A stretch of 64,000 bases of DNA from a virus (IMGVR_UViG_3300013383_000002:1-64000); one strand, 5' to 3'. Positions 2,709 to 62,427 are shown, counted from the stretch's first letter. Notes: generated by a model not told the origin, from the sequence alone. Made by a program: numbers and translations.

Positions 2709-5235
2709 GTATTATCCAGTTGCGGCCGCCCACTTCGCCTTTTCTCCAAGATAACCGTATCTATCGAGATGGTGTTTTACTAGAAAAGGGCGTTGAAGTT
2801 ACTGAAGACTTTTTGATAAGAAATGAAAAGTTTTTTGCAGATTTGACACAAATCTATACCGTCTATCCCGACGTCTATTTGGACATAATTCGACCAGAAA
2901 ATAGTCAGTTTGATTTGTTCATGTATCAGCGTATTTTTCTTAGAAGTTTGATGCGCTATAACCAAGTCTACATTACAGCAACGCGCGCGGCCTCGAAATC
3001 GTTCCTTTCCGTTTTGGGAATGTTTTTACAATGCGTTTTCATTCCAGGACATAAGTGCTCACTCATTGCACCGGTCAAAACCCAAGGCGTAAAAATTTTG
3101 CGCCTCTTCTTTGTAAAAAGGAGATAAATCAGGCATCTAATTGCTGGGAAACCCTAAAAGCCCAAATGCCTTTTTTATAGGAGCAAAAGCAGAAACAAGT
3201 TTTGGGATAACCTACGGCAAAAGCCTAAGGGTATTTATAATGGGCAATCAGCAGCCAACTCTTTTTGAGAGGTTCAACGACTATCCTTCGGGAGTAAATT
3301 CTGAAACGGTGCCTTGCCTCGCGGCAAAAGATATAGTCTAATCTTATGCGAAAGCATAAGCTAATAAAATGAAAAATTTTCAAAGAAAAAATAGCCGAAA
3401 TTCTAAAGATATGGCCTCTTCTTGAAAAAGAACTCGAAGTTTTTATGGGCAAACCGCACATCAATTTATCAAAAGACGTAGGCGAAGCTTATTTCAAGAA
3501 TGGTTCATTATTCACCGTCGAAGGGGCAACAGATTCATCACGCGGCCTCCGACGTCACTCAATCTTTCTCGATGAGACACGTGACGCCGACGAAGACGCG
3601 GTTAGTGAAATCATCATCCCCCAACTAAACGTTTCGCGCCGCAACGCACTCGGCCTTGTAAACCCATATGAAGCCGTAAATCAGCAGATGATTAGTGGTA
3701 CTTCCGCAGGCACTAAATCATCCTATGCCTACGCATTACTTTGCGAGACGATGATACAGGCAATAATTGACCCCGCCCATGCTTTTGTAATGGGACTTGA
3801 TTATAGATTGCCGGCGATGCACGGCTTGGTAGACAAGGCTTTCGTCGAGCGACAAAAGTTCTCATCCTCCTACAATGAAGCAACTTTCGCAGCTGAATTT
3901 TTAGGAACTTGGATTGGCGGGAGTGATGAAGCGTGGTATGATTTTGAGAAACTTTCTAAGTATAGAAAGAAAAAAAATCCAGAGTGGTTTCAAAAGTATA
4001 AAGACGACCCGAATGTTTTCTACTTACTGTCGATAGATATAGGTAAAGGAATTTTGCCCCATTTTGTAGTAATATAAAATGTGTATCTTTCTAATTGCTG
4101 GGACACCTTCAGGGCAATCAGCAGCCAATCTACGGACGGTTCAACGACTATCTCGCAAGAGAGTAAAGGTAAGCGCCTCGAAATGGAAGATATCCTACTG
4201 GGATAATGATATAGTCTAATCTTTATGGGAACATAAAGCCCTATGGTATGAAATTAGCGACTTCATATAAATATAAATGAGATTACACGACAGCACAGTA
4301 GCAACTGTATTTCGGGTCAACAAAGTAAACGGCAAATACTATTCAACCGTTGTAAATATTTATGTCCTAGGACGTCAAGCGGAAACCAAAACTTTCTCTC
4401 AACAAGCGATTGATATCAAACTTTTGATTGAGAGATACAATCCGCGCGAAGTCCTTATAGACACAAATGGCTTAGCAACTTAGGTCATTCAAAATCCCTC
4501 TAATTGCTGGAAAGCCTTTCAAAGGTAATCAGCAGCGAAGTCGCGTTTGAGCGAAACGTTCAACGACCAACCGTGAGGTGTAGGAACAGTGTTCCGAAAC
4601 GGGGGATACTTTTAGTAAAGATATGGTCTTCTCTATATAGTGATATATAGCAGTTCATAAGAGAACGCATACGCTTACGAAACGTATGGAAAATAAAAGT
4701 AGGTCTTGGTATTGCCGACGAAATGATAAAAACCCATATCGACGGCCGCGGGCGAGAGCTTCCCGCTTACGGCTTCTTCAATAATGACGATTATAAAAAA
4801 ATCCAACCGCGTAATTGTATCCCAATTCTCTATTCAATGAAAGCCAATGGCCCTCTAAAGTCAAAAATCAATGGTAACGCTTATGCTCGTCTAAACAGTG
4901 GCTTAGTTCGCTTCTTAATATCAGAGCAAGAGGCCCGCTCTTCCCTTCTCGCGACAAAGAAAGGGCAAAAGATGAGTCTAAAAGAGCGCACAGAGCGACT
5001 TCTGCCTCATGAGAACACCACAAAGCTTTTTACGGAAATGGCTAACCTTCGAGCTAAGCAGACGGGCAATGATATCGTCCTTGAGCCGATAAACTCTCGG
5101 TTCCCCGACGATAAGTATTACTCTTTTGCTTATGGGCTTTGGCGCATCAAAGAAATAGAGGAAGAAGAACAAAAACGCCAAAGAAAACGAGGCGTTGGAA
5201 AACGTAAACTCGTATTTTTTACAGGAGGAACATAA
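2705..5235 (+). CDS. terL: terminase large subunit, spliced: join(2705..3090,3372..4044,4280..4472,4700..5235), 595 aa
   Basis: Walker A-like ATRAASKS, Walker B RGLRRHSIFLDE, nuclease motifs IDIG|R-HD, IDTNGLG and PDDKYYS; exons total 1788 nt in frame. Confidence 0.92.
3091..3371 (+). mobile_element. group I intron 1 in terL (ORF-less, 281 nt)
   Basis: P1 exon GGCGU pairs with IGS GCGCC (U.G); core AATTGCTGGGAA...AATCAGCAGC, P7 GACTA/TAGTC; ends in G; join gives GVKIFKEK. Confidence 0.92.
4045..4279 (+). mobile_element. group I intron 2 in terL (ORF-less, 235 nt)
   Basis: Same core motifs and P7 GACTA/TAGTC; exon ends in U, intron ends in G; join gives IDIG|RLHD; P1 is short (GGU/GCC). Confidence 0.88.
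4473..4699 (+). mobile_element. group I intron 3 in terL (ORF-less, 227 nt)
   Basis: P1 AAUGGCU/GGUCAUU, P10 ACUUA/UAGGU, covariant P7 GACCA/TGGTC; join gives DTNGLGLGIADEM. Confidence 0.92.
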
Positions 5236-12957: not shown

Positions 12958-14469
12958 ATGGCTGATGTACTAAGCCGCTATGGTATCAAGGAAGTTTGTG
13001 ACTTCACTCTTTATGATATCAATGACGATGGTTCTGTTGGCGCTCCTGCGCTATATCTGGATTAACAGAGTAGTCCAGAATAAATCGCGTGAATTGCTGG
13101 AAAACCCTAAAAACCAGAGAGGTATTGAACTTGAAACAAAGTGAGAATGGGCAATCAGCAGCCAAGCTTGAATGGCGGATAATTGCTGAAGATACAAATT
13201 ATATGGTTTCAAATACTGGATTAGTAAAACGAATTCAAACCAATCATATTTTATCTTTTGGAAATAAAAAAAGGTATTATACAGTAGCCTTACATAGTAA
13301 TGGCACTCGTAAAGATAGATATGTTCATAGACTTGTAGCTTTAGCCTTTCTTCCGAATCCAAATAATTTACCATATGTAAATCATCTTGACCATAATATT
13401 CATAACAATAACGTAGAAAATTTAGAATGGTGTACAAGTTCTGAAAATGCTCGACATTCATATAAAGATGGGAGACGAGCAATTGAATATCAAACAACAA
13501 GAAAAGATGTACAAAAAAAGATGGTTGATAGAGTAAAAAAACCTGTTGTTCAATATGATTTAGATATGAATTATATTACCTCTTTTGAAAGTGCAGCAGA
13601 AGCTGCTCGGCAAACAAATGTAAATGACAGAGGTATATCTTTTGTTTGTAACGGAAAAAGAAAAACAGCTGGAGGATTTATTTGGAGATTTCAAGAAGGT
13701 TCAACGACTAAGTGCTCAGAAAATCCAACTGAGACAGCGCGCGACTCTGAAACAAGAGATGATATAGTCTAATCTCAAACGAAAGTTTGAGCTTCACAAT
13801 GAAGGTTTATAAGAATTGGCTTATAAATAAATATCGATGACTCTAAAAATTTCAACCGTCGAGCAAACAGCTGATAGCACTTCTGCTCGTGGCGGCAAGG
13901 GTAATAGCGAATTGGTTATGTGGGATTTTGGTCGTGAAATCACCCTAAACCTTCAGGATGCTCTTTTCTCTGCTAAATCTATGGCAATCATGTTTGGTGA
14001 TGCTGATGGTGCTTCTGCTCCTGCTAGTGGTTCTGTGCTTCGTACTTGGAACCTAACTAAGCTTGGTACTCTTAGCGCTGCTCCTACTCAGCTAGATCTA
14101 GGCCTTGGTAAGAAGCATACTGTTTCTACTAACGCTGTTTATTATACGGCTACTGGCTCTTCTAGCTCTGAATGGAGTGCTGACGCTGTGTATATCACTG
14201 ACAAGGTTACTACCAAAGACCACACTGAAATTGTTATTAATGCTGAGACGTTCCCCGGAACTTATGCATGTATTGGCGACACTTACTGCCGTAGTGAAGA
14301 TACTGGTAACGATAGCTTCTTCCAAATTCAAATTCCAAAGGCAAAGATGCTTTCTGACGTTACTCTAACAATGGAAGCTGAGGGCGACCCCACTGTCTTT
14401 GATATGCAGATGAAGGTTCTCCGTCCAAAGAACGGCGAAATGATGAAGCTAGTCAAGTACGATATCTAA
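12958..14469 (+). CDS. major tail (tube) protein, spliced: join(12958..13062,13840..14469), 244 aa
   Basis: 35-codon exon 1 (MADVLSRYGIKEV...LYLD) with GGAGG RBS is absent from the ORF track; joins to TLKISTVEQ...ARGGKGN; strong codon bias; terminator after. Confidence 0.8.
13063..13839 (+). mobile_element. group I intron in tail tube gene (777 nt) carrying an HNH homing endonuclease
   Basis: P1 CUGGAU/GUCCAG, P10 AGAGU/ACUCU, P7 GACTA/TAGTC, P3 TCGCGT/GCGCGA, terminal G. Confidence 0.92.
13089..13772 (+). CDS. intron-encoded HNH homing endonuclease (NUMOD4-HNH-NUMOD1 type); likely start TTG 13131
   Basis: YMVSNTG, VHRLVALAF, VNHLD...NNNVENLEW, FESAAEAAR...TAGGFIW. Confidence 0.88.
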   Translation: MNCWKTLKTREVLNLKQSENGQSAAKLEWRIIAEDTNYMVSNTGLVKRIQTNHILSFGNKKRYYTVALHSNGTRKDRYVHRLVALAFLPNPNNLPYVNHLDHNIHNNNVENLEWCTSSENARHSYKDGRRAIEYQTTRKDVQKKMVDRVKKPVVQYDLDMNYITSFESAAEAARQTNVNDRGISFVCNGKRKTAGGFIWRFQEGSTTKCSENPTETARDSETRDDIV

Positions 14470-15367: not shown

Positions 15368-18300
15368 ATGGCAGATAAAAAAGTAATACAAATTGCTTTT
15401 GACGGCGATATAGAAAAAGTATCTTCTAAAATTCAAGCCATCCAGAGCGAGCTTAGTAAACTAAGTTTGGGTAAAGGACTGAATCGCGAATTCGAGGAAA
15501 CTTTTTCTTCTTTGACGGCTGAGCTAAAAAAACTCCAAGGGCTGACAGATGGTAATAAAGTAAATTTTGTCGATGTAAAAAAGGTTGAAAAGAGTGCGGA
15601 TGCTATTGATAGACTTTATGATAAGCTGTCTCGTCTCGCAAGTTCTTCTGGAGTAAATAGTTCGCTCCTTAAAAACGATAGGAAGGCAATTGATGCCTTA
15701 GCTAGCGCGCGGACCAAGTATAATTCAATTGCCGCAAGTGGGCTAAAAGAACAACAACGTCTTCAAAAGGATTTAGCTAACGCGCAAGAAAAAACAAATT
15801 CTAAGGCTGAAAGAGCACAATTTCTTGATAATCTGCGCAAACAAACTAGCGAAGCACTAATAAATGCCCAGAAAGAATTAGCATCATTAGAAGCTCAGCT
15901 TCGGGCGAAAGGTGGAAATAATCCAACAAAATATCTAAAAACGGATGATGACGGTAACGTCGTTGGTGCAGATAAACGAACTACCTTAGGTAAACAATAT
16001 AATGCACTAAAAGAACAATTGCCTGATTTGGAAGCTGCGGCGAAAAGTGCCGAAAAAGCTGTCAAACCAAGCTTCGCGCAAATTGAAGAGGAAGCAAAAA
16101 AAATTGCGGACGGAATTGATAAGGCCAAAAAGGCTCTTGATAATTTCAATAACGCACAACCTCAAAAACAAGCAAAAGCTTTTGAAGAAGTCCGTCAAGA
16201 ACTTGAAAAAATTGGCGGAATTGACTGGAAATCTCTTGGTATTGACCTTAACAGCATTAATAATATTGATGAGCTAAATAATAAGCTTTTGACTCTTTCC
16301 AATGATGCAGGTGTTCGCGCGCGACAAGTTCTTGAAAATATCCGAAACGCTAGTTCTGAGGGAGCGGAACCACTTAGAATTTTGGGTCAAAATGCTCGAG
16401 CTGCGGGACAAGACGTGCAAGAGCTTACAGATAGACAAAAAGATATTCAACGCCTAACCGACCAACTAAAAAACTTTTTCTCAATCTCTAACTCTGTTCA
16501 ATTGTTCAAACGAGCAGTTCGTTCTGCTTTTGAAACAGTAAAAGAACTTGATAATGCGATGACTGAGATTGCGGTGGTTTCTGATTTCTCTGTTAGTGAT
16601 ATGTGGGAAAGACTCCCAGAATTTACTGAACAAGCGAATGAGTTAGGCGTAGCCATCAAAGATACTTATAACGCAACTACTCTTTTTGTCGAACAGGGCT
16701 TGGATTTACAGCATTCAGTAGAACTCTCTACTGAAACCTTAAAGATGGCTCGTATTGCTGGTATGGAAGCCGCGGACGCAACCGACGCAATGACAAGCGC
16801 CCTTCGCGGATTCAATATGGAATTAAATCAAACTTCAGCACAACGTGTCAATGATGTTTACTCAGAGCTGGCAGCAATGTCCGCTTCTGATGTCCAAGAG
16901 CTTTCTACTGCTATGTCTAAGACTGCTTCTATTGCTCATAACGTCAATATGGAATTTGAGGCAACAGCGGCGTTCTTAGCTCAGGGTATTGAAAGCACTC
17001 GTGAAAGTGCAGAAACCATTGGTTCAGCTCTCCGTACAGTAATCGCTCGTTTCTCGGAGGTCAAGTCTCTTTATTCAAAAGGTGAAATTACTGGCACCGA
17101 TGAAAACGGGGAAGAAGTCAATGTCAATAAAATTCAAAAGGCATTGCGTTCTGCCGGAATTGATATGACAAAATTTTTTACAGGAGAAGAAGGGCTTGAC
17201 CAAGTTTTCTTGGAGCTTTCTCAGAAATGGAATAACTTAGACGTAACGGTCCAAAGATATTTGGAAAAGTATCTTAATCCATTGAATTGCGGGAAATTCC
17301 TTAGAGTTTTAGTAACCAAGCATATTTTATGTGGCGAAGGTAATGACTGAGGTATGGTAAAATCACTAAAAATTGGAAAATCCGCAACGAAGCTTCTATA
17401 AAAAGAAGAGCGTTCAACGACTATCGAAAGCAATAAAAATAAGGTAATTGAAAAATTACACGAAGCAAGTAGAGTAGAGAAATCGAAGCGATGGACAGAT
17501 TTGAAAAAGAATCTGATGATATAGTCTATTCCTTTGCGAAAGTAAAGGTAGTAAAGATTTCAACTGTGGCGGCCGGCAGTAGACGAGTTCAAAGTTGTCC
17601 ACTGCTTTCTGCGGCCTAATAATACAGATAGCTAAAAATCCTCTTAATTGCGGGAATATCTATCAACTTTTCAATAACCAAGTATAAATAGTAATATTTA
17701 TGTGGCGAGGGTAATGACTGAGGTATGGTAAAATCATTGAAAGGGGACAATCCGCAACGAAGTTCCCATATTGAGGGAGAACGCTCACAGACTATCGAAA
17801 GCGGTAAGATAAGGCGATTGGAATGTCGCACGAAGCGAGTAGAGTAGAGAAATCGAAAGAGAGGACTTCTTTTAGAAGAAAATATAGTCGATGGTATAAA
17901 AATGACTATTTTTATATTAGAACAGAGCCGGTTTATTTCCATGATTAACAACTACTCCCGCACTATGGAGTTAGTAAACGCAGCAAACAATAGTGCAGGC
18001 GCAAGCCAAGAACAATACGAAAAAACTCTTGAAAGTCTTCAAACAAAACTTGCCAAGTTGAAAAATGCTTGGGATGAATTTGTAATGGGACTTTCTAATA
18101 ATGAAGTTATAAAAGTAGCAGTAGACGCCCTAACAAGCCTACTTCAAACAATTAATAAAATTATTAGTTCTCTTTCTGGTGGAAATGGTCTTATAAAATC
18201 AGTCCTTTCTATGGGAACGGCAATCGGTGGCCTAAAGTTAGGAAAATCTATCATTAACTCTCTTATTGGAAACATGGTAAACACAAGAGAGGGTGGGGTT

Positions 18301-57832: not shown

Positions 57833-57835
57833 ATT

Positions 57836-57864
57836 CAGAGGCATAGTTTTACACTATGCCCCTG
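57836..57864 (-). terminator. hairpin, probable terminator after the AAA ATPase gene
   Basis: GGCATAGT...ACTATGCC stem. Confidence 0.6.
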
Positions 57865-57877
57865 AACGTATATCTAT

Positions 57878-60800
57878 TTAGTTCATGCTATCGCGTAGGT
57901 CACGAAGGTCGAGAAGGGCCAAGTATAGGAGGTCTACTTGGTCTTCGGTAACTTCTGAAAGTTTTATCTTTCGGCCAAAAATCATTTCAACCTTCTTAGA
58001 CATCGTGCGAACGATATCAGCTTTTTCGTCATCCGTTTGTGCTTTATTGACAAGCGAAGTCCAGATTTCACGAGCTTCACTCATAGTGGCGTTGAAGTCA
58101 TGCTTTTCATTAGTGATAATTGGAGCATTGTCAACAACTCGCGCACCATTTTGTTCTTCCATGTCAATTGCCTTGGCGAGAGCGTCCTCAAATTCATGAA
58201 AACCAAAAGGAATACGTGGAGCAAGATATTTACAGTTTGTTATCATAAAGGCTTTTTATCCTCTATTTCTTATACTTCATTTCGTATAAGCTCAGCATAT
58301 CTTTTTATCCTTATGGGATATTTGGACTCGTGGGAGTTTTATTCATGAACAAACAAGACTCGAATTTCTCTTTTTTTCTTTTTAGAAAAAGGATTTTTTC
58401 ATTATAAAAACCATAATATAATTTTACACTATTTGTTTTATTGAAAGTGAAATAGTAAAGTGGAACAGTTGACCTTTTATCCCATCTTGAATGAATGATC
58501 GTTGGAATAATACCTAATTGCTCTTCCAAAATAGACATAATAATAGAAAGATTTTCTTTGGAAACACTTACTAAATTAGTTCTTATCGTATGTCCATCAT
58601 TCGGTTTATAGACACACCCATTTCCATCAAAATATCCATGAATAAAATCTAAATAATATTCTTTTGGAAGATTCAATGGAAATTTCATTTCATAGGTTTT
58701 TTTATTTGTAATTCCATAATTAGCAAGAAAACTGACATATTTTTTTGAAGAAAAAGTCAAACTAACTGAAGGGTGGCCGTCCTTCAAGTAATGATAAATT
58801 GGCCCATCAAACTCTATATACTTTTTGATTTTTTCTAAAACTTCTTCATCTTTTTCTGCCAAACCAATACTTATTCGATGTAAAGTTTTTCCTTCTGGAG
58901 ATTTACAAATATAACCATCTGCCGCGATGAACCCCATCAGCCAAGCTGTATCGTGGTTGATTTGAATGATTTTATCATCATTTATTTTATACTTTCTATT
59001 ATCAGTATTTTGTCGAGCTTCTTCGTGAGTTCTTATTCTAATGTTGTTTTCTTTCAAGATTTTTTTTAGACAAGCGTCACTTGTTCTATACTTTTTAGAG
59101 CATTTTGATAAAGATAGCCCGTTTGAGTAATCTTTGATAAAATCCTCAATAACTCCTTCTATTTCAACACGAGGTCTTTTTTTATGAGTTTTTTTTAATT
59201 CAAAACCGTTTTCTCTAAAAATTCGTCTAGTTAGGTCATAGCCATAACCTTCAAGCTTGCCAGCTTCGATAAGAGATAAATCTTTTTCATAGTAATTTGT
59301 TTTTATTCTTTGAATTACCTCTTCTGGCACCACTTTTTTATTTGCCATGTTATTTTCTCCTATGCGTTGCCCCTGACCAGTATTTTACCACTAGCCTTCA
59401 GGTCTGATTCCCATCTCAGGGTTCCAGCTTTTTTCCAAAATTTTATTGATAAATTACTTTACCATAGCTCTATTTCTAAAGCGGCTACCTGCTGTAACAG
59501 TGGGCGTTGAGCGCGTTAGAATCCAGCGTTCACTTTCCCCTTTTTCGTTCCAAGATTGAGTAATAACACCGATGATGTCAACACAATTTGTTATCGTAAA
59601 GTTTTTTATCTTTACTTCTTACTCTTGAATTTGAGTAAGTTCAGCATATCTTTTTTCCTCTACGTTAGAGGAATAGAGTCTCGTGGATTTTATATCATAA
59701 AAGGTCTTCATTATTTGATATTTTCTTTCCATATAAATGGAATTAGGAACATACAGAATTTCAAAAAGTTTTAGTATAGTTTCTTTTTTATAGACTTGCA
59801 TTGAATAAAAATGGTCGCCTTGACTCAAAGTTTTTGTGCTAGTAGACAGGGAAGTAATAATACCATACTTATTCAAAAGAACTTGACGCATCCATTCAAT
59901 AACTTCTTTTCTGGCACCACAAATATACCAATTATATTGATATTTTTTATAATTCGTCCAGATACAACCGTCGCCATCAAAGTATCCTCGGATATAAGAA
60001 ATAAAATATCGTTCGTCAAGAAAAGTAGGCGGGACCAAAGTAAAAGTTTTATGAGGAATTATTCCATAATGAGCTAAGTCTTGCTTGATAGTATAGCTAC
60101 AAACTCTAAGACGACTATACTCATGGCCTGAATTATTAGTATAGTGTTCTATCGGTCCTTCATAACTTAGTTCATCTTTTATTTTATATAATATTTCTTC
60201 ATCAGCTCGTTGGATGTCTATTGAGAAATGGTTTGAGCTTTTTGAAACGCCTCCATCAGATGCTAAAAAACCAAGAATGTAAGCCATATTGTGGGATTGA
60301 ACTTTGAAATAATCGTCATTGACATTATGTGCTCGGCATTCTTTCATGGCCTCTTGTCGATTACGAACTTTTACTCCCCATTTTTTCAGATATCTTTGAA
60401 TTGTTATTCCTGCGATTCCAACGTCTCGGCCGATAGCGTTGACCCCTCTTTTCAATACTGCATAATTATATACTATAAACTCTTTTTGTTCATCTGTGAA
60501 TGAAATAGGTTTACCCACGCTGGGTTCCTCCTTTATGTTTATCAATCTATGCGTTGCGCGTGTTAGAGCTTTTGCACCCTAACTTCCGCTCTGATTCCCA
60601 TCTCAGGGTTCCAGCTTTTTACTCTAATTTAGATATTTGTTACCAAATAAATGCCCCATTGAGGCCATTGACAATTTTTAGACAACGGTTATTGAGGTCG
60701 GGCTTCGCACTAATAAGCTTGCCCTCCTCGTCATAAGTCTCTTTCAAGTGACACGTCATGAGAAGGCCATATCTCATCATAGTAATTTTGCGGAGGGAAT

Positions 60801-62427
60801 TTTCAAATTCTTTCGACAGTTGAGCGTAACCTCCACCGAAGGGCACATCTCCGATCTTAGATACTCCATTCTGCGCGCAGATAAACTGCTCACAAAGGTC
60901 ATAAAGTCAATGTGTTATCGTAAAGGTTTTTTATCCTTTACTTCTTATACTTCATTTCGTATAAGTTCAGCATATCTTTTTTACCTCATCAAAGGTAATT
61001 CAGGCTCTTGGATAATTATTTCATAAGAGATAAGAATTTTTTATATTTTCTTTCCATATATAGGGAATCTTTTACATATAAAATATTGAAAATTTGTCTA
61101 GCTCTGTCTCCGTAATAAGTAATTTCATACCAGTCTCTATTATCGGACAATTTCCCTTTTACTGTTCTTAGAACCGTTTGTATATTATACTGGGTACTTA
61201 AAAAATCTCTCATCCATTGTATGATGTCTTTAGAAGCTCCTCCAATAAAAAAGCTAGGAGTATAATTATTTAAAACAATACATCCATCTCCATCAAAATA
61301 CCCTCTAATATAAGAAATACAATACTCAGGAAGAAGAAGCTCTGGCGGTTTTAATATAAAAGTTTTATTTGGAACAATTCCGTAGTGAGCTAAATCTTTT
61401 TTTATAGTAGAACTCCAAAAAGAAAGCTTCGCTATTTCTCTTTCTTTTTCTCCTTCTCCTACACAAGAATACACTTTTACTGGACGAGTATTTTTTAGTT
61501 CTCTATTTATATCTTCAAGAATTTTTTTATCATCAGCTTTTAACTGAATAAAGATACCGTTTTCTTTAGAAGAGACACTCCCGTCCGAAGCTAATAGCCC
61601 TAGTATATATGCCATATTATGAGATTGTGTTTTAAAATAATTATCATCAATAGTATACTTCCGTAAATTATCTTTTGATTCTACATAATTACGGATATAA
61701 ACACCATTTTCTTGAAGAATAGTTTTTACCGCTCTTTGACTAAGGCTAAAAGGCTTCCCACTAGGAACAAGTCCTTTTTTTAAGACTGTATAATTATAAA
61801 TTACTTTTTCTTGTATTTCTTTTGAAACATCTTTTTTATTTTGATGTTTAGCTTCTCTAATTTCAACATTATGAGATTTTAATAAATTACGGACAGTTTG
61901 TCTGTTACAATTATACTCTTTGGCTAAACTCATTAGAGAGTATTTTTCATTTACATATTTTTTATATATATCTTCCCAAAATTCTTCTAGTTTACTCAAC
62001 CGAGTCAACCTCCTATGTTTATATTATCTATGCGTTGCGCGTGTTAGAATTTTTACATTCTAACTTCCGCTCTGATTCCCATCTCAGGGTTCCAGCTTTT
62101 TACTGAAATAAAACTAATTTATTACTAAATTAGAGGACGCTTTTCCATCCCAATAGTATCAATGCAAATTGTCTGATATAGTTCTTTTGCTTGCGGTTTT
62201 TCAAGCTGTCGAAGAACAAGTTTCCACTCGCTCCAAGTGGTAATTGGCTGAACCATCGCATTGCTTTGAGCGTTGGTTCCAATCTCGGTCGCTATGATGA
62301 GAGCTTTGTCGCTTTGACAACAAAACTCCGTTTTACCAATCTTAGGCGCGCCTGCGAGAAGCAGATATTTTCCACGTAGATTTCTCGAGATTACATTCGG
62401 CTGTAAAGAAAGAATATCAATGCCCAT
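57878..62427 (-). CDS. AAA_24/Sak4-like P-loop ATPase (recombination), spliced: complement(join(57878..58232,59479..59583,60662..60907,62147..62427)), 328 aa
   Basis: GAPKIGKT, E.G, CIDTI, FGGGY, H.K, L|VDIIG and AGSRF|KYL all restored; exons total 987 nt in frame. Confidence 0.85.
58233..59478 (-). mobile_element. group I intron C in the AAA ATPase gene (1246 nt)
   Basis: P1 GCUU/GAGC; AAGCTGGAACCCTGAGATGGGAATCAG; P7 GCATA/TATGC; terminal G. Confidence 0.88.
58311..59348 (-). CDS. intron-encoded double-motif LAGLIDADG endonuclease
   Basis: WLMGFIAADG and FIHGYFDGNG; N-terminal HTH-like repeats. Confidence 0.9.
   Translation of the reverse strand: MANKKVVPEEVIQRIKTNYYEKDLSLIEAGKLEGYGYDLTRRIFRENGFELKKTHKKRPRVEIEGVIEDFIKDYSNGLSLSKCSKKYRTSDACLKKILKENNIRIRTHEEARQNTDNRKYKINDDKIIQINHDTAWLMGFIAADGYICKSPEGKTLHRISIGLAEKDEEVLEKIKKYIEFDGPIYHYLKDGHPSVSLTFSSKKYVSFLANYGITNKKTYEMKFPLNLPKEYYLDFIHGYFDGNGCVYKPNDGHTIRTNLVSVSKENLSIIMSILEEQLGIIPTIIHSRWDKRSTVPLYYFTFNKTNSVKLYYGFYNEKILFLKRKKEKFESCLFMNKTPTSPNIP
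59584..60661 (-). mobile_element. group I intron B in the AAA ATPase gene (1078 nt)
   Basis: P1 GCCU/GGGC, P10 CAAUG/UGUUG; same core; terminal G. Confidence 0.88.
59619..60545 (-). CDS. intron-encoded double-motif LAGLIDADG endonuclease
   Basis: YILGFLASDG and YIRGYFDGDG. Confidence 0.9.
   Translation of the reverse strand: MINIKEEPSVGKPISFTDEQKEFIVYNYAVLKRGVNAIGRDVGIAGITIQRYLKKWGVKVRNRQEAMKECRAHNVNDDYFKVQSHNMAYILGFLASDGGVSKSSNHFSIDIQRADEEILYKIKDELSYEGPIEHYTNNSGHEYSRLRVCSYTIKQDLAHYGIIPHKTFTLVPPTFLDERYFISYIRGYFDGDGCIWTNYKKYQYNWYICGARKEVIEWMRQVLLNKYGIITSLSTSTKTLSQGDHFYSMQVYKKETILKLFEILYVPNSIYMERKYQIMKTFYDIKSTRLYSSNVEEKRYAELTQIQE
60908..62146 (-). mobile_element. group I intron A in the AAA ATPase gene (1239 nt)
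   Basis: P1 GGGAU/GUCCU; same core; terminal G; join gives DTIGILYDLCE. Confidence 0.88.
61016..62008 (-). CDS. intron-encoded double-motif LAGLIDADG endonuclease
   Basis: YILGLLASDG and YIRGYFDGDG. Confidence 0.9.
   Translation of the reverse strand: MTRLSKLEEFWEDIYKKYVNEKYSLMSLAKEYNCNRQTVRNLLKSHNVEIREAKHQNKKDVSKEIQEKVIYNYTVLKKGLVPSGKPFSLSQRAVKTILQENGVYIRNYVESKDNLRKYTIDDNYFKTQSHNMAYILGLLASDGSVSSKENGIFIQLKADDKKILEDINRELKNTRPVKVYSCVGEGEKEREIAKLSFWSSTIKKDLAHYGIVPNKTFILKPPELLLPEYCISYIRGYFDGDGCIVLNNYTPSFFIGGASKDIIQWMRDFLSTQYNIQTVLRTVKGKLSDNRDWYEITYYGDRARQIFNILYVKDSLYMERKYKKFLSLMK

Follow-up and report, generated by a model that had tools for sequence, protein, structure and literature searches.

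The subject of this report is a Sak4-like gene on the minus strand of a 64,000-nucleotide (nt) stretch of viral DNA (IMGVR_UViG_3300013383_000002:1-64000; the whole stretch is here called the window), which is part of a 121,436-bp virus record with direct terminal repeats. We regard it as very probable that this gene is split by three mobile group I introns, which belong to one phage-borne lineage and were acquired separately. This reading is carried by the gene structure, a covariation-supported fold, the presence/absence polymorphism of the introns among related phages, and the sequence signatures of recent transfer. The four exons sum to 987 nt (328 codons and a stop codon) across 4,550 bp, of which the introns (1239 + 1078 + 1246 nt) occupy 78.3%; an initial annotation of the window had described a 987-nt gene spread over 4.55 kb by three phase-2 introns, with about 78% of the locus being intron, and every one of these numbers holds on recomputation.

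The interrupted gene and its junctions

The elements of the locus, in the direction of transcription, are as follows.

Exon 1: 62427-62147, minus strand, 281 nt, with Walker A GAPKIGKT and Walker B ICIDTIG (AAA_24, phrog_124, tblastn)
Intron 1: 62146-60908, minus strand, 1239 nt, with P1 GGGAU/GUCCU, a P2 with GUAA loop, and P3 UUCAG/CUGAA
Exon 2: 60907-60662, minus strand, 246 nt (Pfam AAA_24 and phrog_124)
Intron 2: 60661-59584, minus strand, 1078 nt, with P1 GCCU/GGGC and P3 UAGAG/CUCUA
Exon 3: 59583-59479, minus strand, 105 nt (tblastn)
Intron 3: 59478-58233, minus strand, 1246 nt, with P1 GCUU/GAGC and P3 UUUGG/CCAAA
Exon 4: 58232-57878, minus strand, 355 nt with the stop codon counted, joined to exon 3 without a gap in the related contigs L004, L039 and L050
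Terminator-like hairpin: 57833-57867, minus strand, 15 pairs and a T run, directly 3' of the gene

All three introns are in phase 2, with T as the last base of each exon and G as the last base of each intron. The related contigs L039, L004 and L050 were found by scanning IMG/VR for the shared intron core, and their flanking genes are about 82-87% identical to those of the window. Intron-less alleles that match the spliced junction are present in L039 and L050 at the site of intron 1, in L004 and L039 at the site of intron 2, and in all three contigs at the site of intron 3. There are thus at least two natural alleles per site, contiguous over all three predicted junctions and without any difference in length, and the splice sites are therefore fixed to within the one-base ambiguity that arises from repeated T's.

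When the exons are joined the frame is open for 328 codons. Exon 1 matches Pfam AAA_24 at 1.9e-11, exons 1 and 2 match both AAA_24 and phrog_124 ('Sak4-like ssDNA annealing protein', ssDNA being single-stranded DNA), and exons 1-3 align by tblastn, collinearly, with consecutive parts of the Sak4-like protein of Enterococcus phage VRE9_4. Exon 4 gave no family match alone; it is included when the spliced protein is aligned over its full length, and that protein is 35.6% identical to the VRE9_4 protein over residues 3-326. The gene order phrog_2367, Sak4, phrog_4680 and DnaB-like helicase is also common to both phages. On the profile match, the Walker A and B motifs and the conserved position in the replication module, the predicted product is a functional Sak4-like (AAA_24) ssDNA-annealing ATPase.

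Group I fold and endonuclease genes of the introns

The 28-nt core AAGCTGGAACCCTGAGATGGGAATCAGA, which corresponds to P4-P5-P4' (P denoting paired and J joining elements) and is the core named in the initial annotation, occurs in exactly three exact copies in the window, where none is expected (100 shuffles), and no further copy was found in the 121-kb genome. The P7 strands CAACGCATAG and AGATATGCTG are found, within the window, only in these three introns, the P7 of its remaining introns being CAACGACTA/ATATAGTC. Both the near-identical shared core and the contrast of P7 GCATA/TATGC with the GACTA/TAGTC found elsewhere, as first described, are therefore borne out by word search of the window. 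The core elements are located as follows.

Intron 1 core: 62071-62098, minus strand, P4-P5-P4' (CUGG AA CCC UGAGAU GGG AA UCAG), with P5 covarying across the family
Intron 1 P7, 5' strand: 62029-62033, minus strand, GCAUA, after J6/7 CAAC, pairing with 60970-60974
Intron 1 P7, 3' strand: 60970-60974, minus strand, UAUGC, after J8/7 AAAAGA and followed by P9 and a second 3' hairpin
Intron 2 core: 60590-60617, minus strand, with P7 60548-60552 pairing with 59644-59648
Intron 3 core: 59403-59430, minus strand, with P7 59361-59365 pairing with 58295-58299

From the 5' end, the fold scheme runs through P1 with its internal guide sequence, P2 (capped by GUAA in introns 1 and 2), P3 and P4 (CUGG/UCAG) to P5 (CCC/GGG with loop UGAGAU), P6/P6a, J6/7 (CAAC), P7 (GCAUA) and a P7.1 hairpin that holds an open reading frame (ORF); the 3' part is formed by a conserved CA(C/A)GAG, P3', P8, J8/7 (AAAAGA), P7' (UAUGC), P9, one more hairpin and a GAUAACAnnnG tail. 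The P6 of intron 3 is of a type unlike that of introns 1 and 2. The series CAAC-GCAUA ... AAAAGA-UAUGC aligns with CAAC-GACUA ... AAGAUA-UAGUC of Rfam. In P1 of the three introns, the exon ends ...GGGAU, ...GCCU and ...GCUU stand opposite GUCCU, GGGC and GAGC, 5-8 nt into the intron, and the predicted U.G wobble at the 5' splice site and terminal G at the 3' splice site were found in all three. The P7.1 extension presumably places the lineage in subgroup IA.

The fold is supported by covariation. When a hand-drawn P3-P9 fold was tested on an alignment (A1) of 17 distinct ORF-less relatives, 95.4% of cells were paired, as against 76% in shuffles and 31-43% with partners slid; both sides change in 31 of the 52 pairs, and none of 500 shuffles reached any of the measures. 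RNAalifold, with no structure supplied, recovers P3, P4, P5, P6, P6a, P7.1, P9 and the last hairpin, and among the window introns themselves P3 covaries, as the three pairings listed above illustrate. We conclude that these are, as judged from sequence and covariation, bona fide group I ribozymes of a lineage that lies beyond the reach of the Rfam model.

Each intron also carries an ORF of the LAGLIDADG type.

ORF A: 61016-62008, minus strand, in the P7.1 loop of intron 1, the longest ORF beginning with TTG at 62008
ORF B: 59619-60518, minus strand, 299 amino acids (aa) from GTG at 60518, 8 nt after AGGAGG, the longest ORF beginning with TTG at 60545
ORF C: 58311-59348, minus strand, 345 aa, with ATG 8 nt after GGAG

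All three lie between the two P7 strands, each with its own Shine-Dalgarno sequence 8-9 nt before the start (TTG at 61999, 9 nt after GGAGG, being the likely start of ORF A); ORF B continues through P3', P8 and P7' into P9, and ORF C through P3' into P8. Each matches Pfam LAGLIDADG_3 in two stretches (2e-12 to 6e-14) and covers phrog_4645 ('endonuclease') end to end, and for their N-terminal 85-135 residues or so Pfam gives weak helix-turn-helix hints below cut-offs only. ORFs A and B, named as paralogues at the outset by motifs that are indeed present, are 43-44% identical; identity is 26% between A and C and 31% between B and C. In A (motifs ILGLLASDG and YIRGYFDGDG) and in B alike, Asp is present in both motifs, the ORF is of full length and the ribosome-binding site is good. 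The claim that each intron holds an intact double-motif ORF 3' of the first P7 strand stands as to position, and as to A and B, and is not entirely correct for C. Motif 1 of ORF C has Asp; motif 2 reads FIHGYFDGNG, with Asn243 (codon AAT, 58622-58620) at a position occupied by Asp in 39 of 40 relatives, including P0002 (67% identical to ORF C), Asn being found only in the window protein. The metal-binding residue of these enzymes is the penultimate Asp or Glu of each LAGLIDADG motif (PMC6294521). An AlphaFold2 model of ORF C, based on a 40-sequence alignment (mean pLDDT, the model's per-residue confidence score, of 89), shows two N-terminal three-helix modules and a two-fold LAGLIDADG core, with I-AniI, I-Tsp061I, bI3 maturase, I-DmoI and I-OnuI as the best PDB matches by Foldseek. 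The ORF of an intron at site 93 in another contig (L046) has a motif 2 that also ends in Asn-Gly (YIRGYFDGNG), its close relatives in L031 and L042 reading GDG; loss of the motif 2 Asp may recur in the family.

Other group I introns were encountered in the window on the plus strand. Canonical ones, with Rfam scores of 66-92 bits, lie at 3081-3360, 4035-4238, 4402-4650 and 17192-17548, and a sub-threshold match lies at 17587-17914; words of the form CAA(C/A)GACTA or ATATAGTC occur near 13702, 30995 and 24776.

Distribution, origin and movement of the introns

A degenerate core pattern retrieved 57 loci from IMG/VR. A tblastn search of the spliced protein over these loci places the lineage inside Sak4-like genes, 30-95% identical to that of the window, on about 27 viral contigs, and at least six sites are used, at about aa 28, 67, 93, 95, 176 and 211. 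The site at aa 28, in Walker A, is occupied in 14 loci, that at aa 67 in five, and the positions just past Walker B in eight; the site at aa 176 is occupied in the window and in L050, and that at aa 211 in the window only. The post-Walker-B insertions represent two sites 6 nt apart, IDT-V (L031, L046, L042, L030 and L058) and IDTIG-I (the window and L004). Some members of the lineage reside in other genes, whose upstream translations are terminase-like, gyrase/topoisomerase-like or portal-like (labels given without a profile check), and in two loci (L028 and L054) the endonuclease ORF is broken, with only 65-78 aa left.

Further observations concern individual members. L004 (12820-13071, minus strand) and L039 (2890-3141) have an ORF-less lineage intron located within the codons for Walker A (GAP|KIGKT, aa 28/29, phase 0) with P5 AGC/GCU, not CCC/GGG, at a position where the window gene is intron-less. 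In L020 (3343-3941), two ORF-less lineage introns lie 373 nt apart in one Sak4-like gene, at sites 28 and 67; the core of the first is nearly identical to that of the ORF-bearing site-28 intron of L024, and the two look like an ORF-minus/ORF-plus pair of the same intron. In the distant Sak4-like gene of L023 (323-3562), tblastn yields pieces for aa 1-67, 56-138 and 165-325, which suggests that, besides holding the family intron at aa 67, the gene is interrupted again near aa 138-165; this second interruption does not fit the core pattern. Lineage members in cultured phages (AR9, Enterocloster CB457P2 and phiCP39-O) were considered as candidates for insertion in Sak4 genes and were ruled out on inspection.

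The four related phages, the window included, have four different intron sets: L039 has only the ORF-less intron at site 28, L004 has that intron together with intron 1 of the window (site 95), and L050 has only intron 2 of the window (site 176). Intron 1 is identical to its L004 copy at 1235 of 1239 positions (99.7%), with neighbouring genes about 85-86% identical, and intron 2 is 91.8% identical to its L050 orthologue. The exons are mosaic. Against L004, identity is 84.5% for exon 1a, 94.4% for exon 1b, 91.5% for exon 2 and 75.2% for exon 3; against L050, it is 73.5% for exon 2 and 86.7% for exon 3, and exon ancestry thus switches at the site of intron 2. Mosaic exons with breakpoints at intron sites would be the expected trace of repair of endonuclease breaks, and nuclease genes tend to mark the boundaries of exchange between co-infecting phages (PMC10448857), a pattern with which the ancestry switches at the intron sites fit.

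The cores of introns 1 and 2 are 81% identical, those of 1 and 3 78%, and those of 2 and 3 70%. The ribozyme-core tree places introns 1 and 2 in the clade of ORF-bearing Sak4 introns (support 94/93) and intron 3 among ORF-less introns located in other genes (90/86); the best match of intron 3 is L013, at 81% identity. In the endonuclease tree, one clade (95/99) unites A (together with the L004 enzyme), B (with that of L050) and the second post-Walker-B group; the enzymes of site 28 and of site 67 make up groups of their own, C is a long branch outside the A/B clade, and enzymes cluster largely by site. The initial annotation had proposed to compare the phylogeny of the endonucleases with that of the cores: the two trees agree, the cores are one family, and within it introns 1 and 2 belong together, with intron 3 more distantly related. 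Its broader proposal, that one intron/endonuclease family had radiated within a recombination gene, survives in part, in that one family does occupy several sites across Sak4-like genes (about 27 contigs, at least six sites), and lacks support as to a spread inside this copy of the gene. Diversification across sites would have taken place at the scale of the phage population, beyond any one genome, and the unlike sequences at the junctions suggest that target specificity has diverged between sites.

Separate acquisition from a phage-wide pool is the most likely origin of the three introns, as suggested by the single or other combinations of introns in relatives, by the intron matches of 99.7% and about 92%, and by the position of intron 3 as an outlier in both trees. 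Splicing, cleavage and homing, as read from these sequences, would proceed in the following way. The whole locus would be transcribed into one RNA, in which each intron would fold and self-splice, its internal guide sequence pairing with the last 4-5 exon bases via the U.G wobble and its terminal G marking the 3' splice site, so as to restore the 328-aa protein. The gene in each P7.1 loop, with its own ribosome-binding site, would provide a monomeric double-LAGLIDADG endonuclease, which during co-infection should cleave the allele of a related phage that has no intron; with the intron-bearing copy as the template for repair, the intron and some of the flanking exon would then be copied in, a process known as homing. 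The donors would be the intron pool circulating among related phages at the six or more sites in Sak4-like genes.

Several observations weigh against this reading. There is no long co-conversion tract around intron 1: window and L004 show mismatches 6-8 nt upstream and 19 nt downstream, so that the tract is very short, if present at all, and only a raised exon identity is seen. Among the Sak4-like loci found, no relative with intron 3 at its site was seen. The Rfam model RF00028 gives no match to the three window introns, either in gathering mode or at E<=1, or to an ORF-less relative at E<=10 (nor to the members in AR9 and the Enterocloster phage at E<=1), and it does detect other introns of the window and of the same loci; the case for group I membership is thus built on our own structure model and covariation. 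P7 itself is invariant throughout the 17-sequence alignment, and support for it comes from sequences outside it: the variants GCCUA/UAGGC in L032 and GCGUA/UACGC in Enterocloster and Clostridium perfringens phages, and a sixth pair beside the bulged base that changes from A-U to G-C (CAAC...UGAAC to CAGA...CGAAC) in at least nine loci. Lastly, one of the two catalytic Asp residues is missing from the enzyme of intron 3, which, because of the Asn in motif 2, is probably a nickase or inactive.

A more far-reaching proposal, which we advance only tentatively and consider doubtful, is that the introns with a GCAUA P7 constitute a distinct, uncatalogued group I branch specialised on the Sak4-like genes of Bacillota-type phages, with LAGLIDADG enzymes that would have diverged, over a single 1-kb gene, into at least six lineages, each specific to its site. 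Exon skipping of the type known from phage Twort (see below) might occur as well: given phase-2 introns, exons 2 and 3 that are multiples of three, and near-identical cores and 3' tails, it could yield in-frame shortened Sak4 isoforms.

Radiation in place, whereby one intron with its endonuclease would have entered this copy of the gene and spread by ectopic transposition to two other sites before the specificities diverged, is unlikely. It would account for the presence of all three family copies of the 121-kb genome in one gene, for the P4-P5 core and 3' tail that are near-identical in all three, and for the well-supported clade that unites endonucleases A and B; sites 95 and 176 also share 9 of 18 junction bases, a weak resemblance by our own count. 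However, L004 has intron 1 without introns 2 and 3, and L050 has intron 2 without 1 and 3. Enzymes A and B are 44% identical to each other and A and C 26%, yet A is 99% identical to the L004 enzyme and B 94% to that of L050. The grouping of the intron 3 core with ORF-less introns of other genes, and exons that are a mosaic of different donors, likewise speak against it, and both trees already suggest that the window introns are not each other's closest relatives.

Less probable still is that the introns splice and their endonucleases are decaying or have turned into maturases, the locus being a frozen relic. The Asn of ORF C at the second metal-binding position and the broken ORFs of L028 and L054 could be read in this way, and LAGLIDADG maturases are known, e.g. 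the bI3 maturase (which is among the fold matches of ORF C) and a case in Thermotoga neapolitana (PMC3984707). Against this stand ORFs A and B, which retain both acidic residues, full length and good ribosome-binding sites, and intron 1, which differs at only four of 1239 positions from the copy in a genome diverged by 15%, a sign of very recent transfer. The least credible explanation is that there are no introns at all and that the locus is either a pseudogene disrupted by the insertion of three free-standing endonuclease genes or a gene expressed as fragments. This would fit the failure of Rfam to find a group I intron at the locus and the calling of the exons as separate small ORFs. Against it, once precisely these intervals are excised, an open frame is regained that is collinear, base for base, with homologues and intron-less alleles; the RNA elements on either side covary in the manner of a group I fold, and every boundary shows both the U...G splice signature and a guide sequence internal to the intron.

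Known systems and significance

A megablast search of the whole locus against GenBank phages found nothing but a 42-nt match, in P9, to Clostridium perfringens phages. The nearest parallel in architecture is orf142 of Staphylococcus phage Twort, a small gene with three group I introns and exon skipping (PMC10136302). In both cases one short phage gene holds three group I introns, some of them highly similar to one another; they differ in that the Twort introns are 23 nt apart, as compared with 105-246 nt here, and in that each intron here has a LAGLIDADG gene and belongs to the lineage with the GCAUA P7. The Twort introns are ORF-less members of subgroup IA2 with a canonical P7.

A member of the same lineage is found in gyrA of Bacillus phage AR9/PBS1 (KU878088), with a CUGG...UCAG P4, GCAACGCAUAG, a P7.1 hairpin, CCAAGAG and AAAAAGAUAUGC; unlike the introns of the window it resides in a gyrase A gene, its P5 is longer, and a LAGLIDADG ORF is absent from the stretch read. 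The locus in question (L062, 1440-1720) is the first intron of AR9 gyrA, the coding sequence (CDS) of which is annotated as a three-piece join. Two further members in cultured phages are unannotated. In Enterocloster phage CB457P2 (OP172754; L061, 2440-2712), a lineage intron with P7 GCGUA/UACGC lies between adjacent CDSs for 'hypothetical protein' (locus positions 1883-2524 and 2710-3468), probably one split gene, and is followed at 3457-3787 by a canonical group I intron detected by Rfam. In Clostridium phage phiCP39-O (EU588980; also phiCP26F, phiCP9O and PMQ04; L018, 2362-2545), 42 nt are 95% identical to the P9 region of intron 3, and upstream GAGCGTAG ... CCCAAGAG ... GTACGCCGACC form a P7/P3'/P7'-like set of the same lineage; this stretch is in an unannotated gap after a CDS for 'hypothetical protein', and Rfam finds nothing there.

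As regards the host gene, the rec gene of Staphylococcus Kayvirus phages (JX080304) also combines a recombinase gene with a group I intron, which encodes I-MsaII ('DOD homing endonuclease'); the I-MsaII ORF lies after the first P7 strand, is a LAGLIDADG protein of the phrog_4645 type and is 27% identical to ORF B. The Kayvirus gene differs in having a single intron and in being called RecA-related in its GenBank note. The rec/I-MsaII intron of Staphylococcus phage MSA6 was considered for the GCAUA lineage and rejected, as its P7 is the canonical GACUA/UAGUC and a tblastn comparison of rec with the Sak4-like protein found no similarity. In recA of Bacillus phage 0305phi8-36, too, a recombinase gene holds a mobile group I intron, in that case a single one, whose endonuclease (I-Bth0305I) is of the EDxHD family (PMC3239194). 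The DNA polymerase and terminase genes of Bastillevirinae have two or three group I introns each, and Rfam and GISSD models miss parts of phage introns (PMC11878797); these genes resemble the present one in having several endonuclease-bearing group I introns in one phage gene, and differ in their host functions and in that the endonucleases are mostly HNH, with one LAGLIDADG reported (PMC11878797). Fungal mitochondrial cox1 is comparable as one conserved gene that serves as a reservoir of related intron/LAGLIDADG pairs of variable presence (PMC2987802, PMC7487136), the differences being that it is organellar and that its introns are of different subgroups. The endonucleases of phage introns are mostly GIY-YIG, HNH, PD-(D/E)xK or EDxHD enzymes, LAGLIDADG enzymes being found mainly in organelles, bacteria and archaea (PMC3984707); GenBank does hold phage LAGLIDADG intron ORFs, e.g. 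I-MsaII.

The locus is a good, not unprecedented, case of mobile introns accumulating in one conserved phage gene of DNA metabolism, and the known workings of such elements are unchanged by these findings. Of moderate interest are the invisibility of the lineage to RF00028, its recurrence in Sak4-like genes, where about six sites are used, and an enzyme that lacks one catalytic residue. Because RF00028 is blind to the lineage, annotation pipelines will report the Sak4 gene as fragments together with stray endonuclease genes, and the lineage is unannotated in cultured phages, i.e. in Enterocloster bolteae phages and probably in Clostridium perfringens phiCP39-O; of these, the cultured Enterocloster phage CB457P2 could serve for experiments. 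The target gene is itself a recombination gene, the type of function on which homing depends. Related LAGLIDADG enzymes at about six sites of one small gene, together with natural intron-less alleles, make up a compact system for the study of shifts in meganuclease specificity, and if the introns should prove to be a branch specialised on Sak4-like genes, they would represent a natural series of re-targeted meganucleases.

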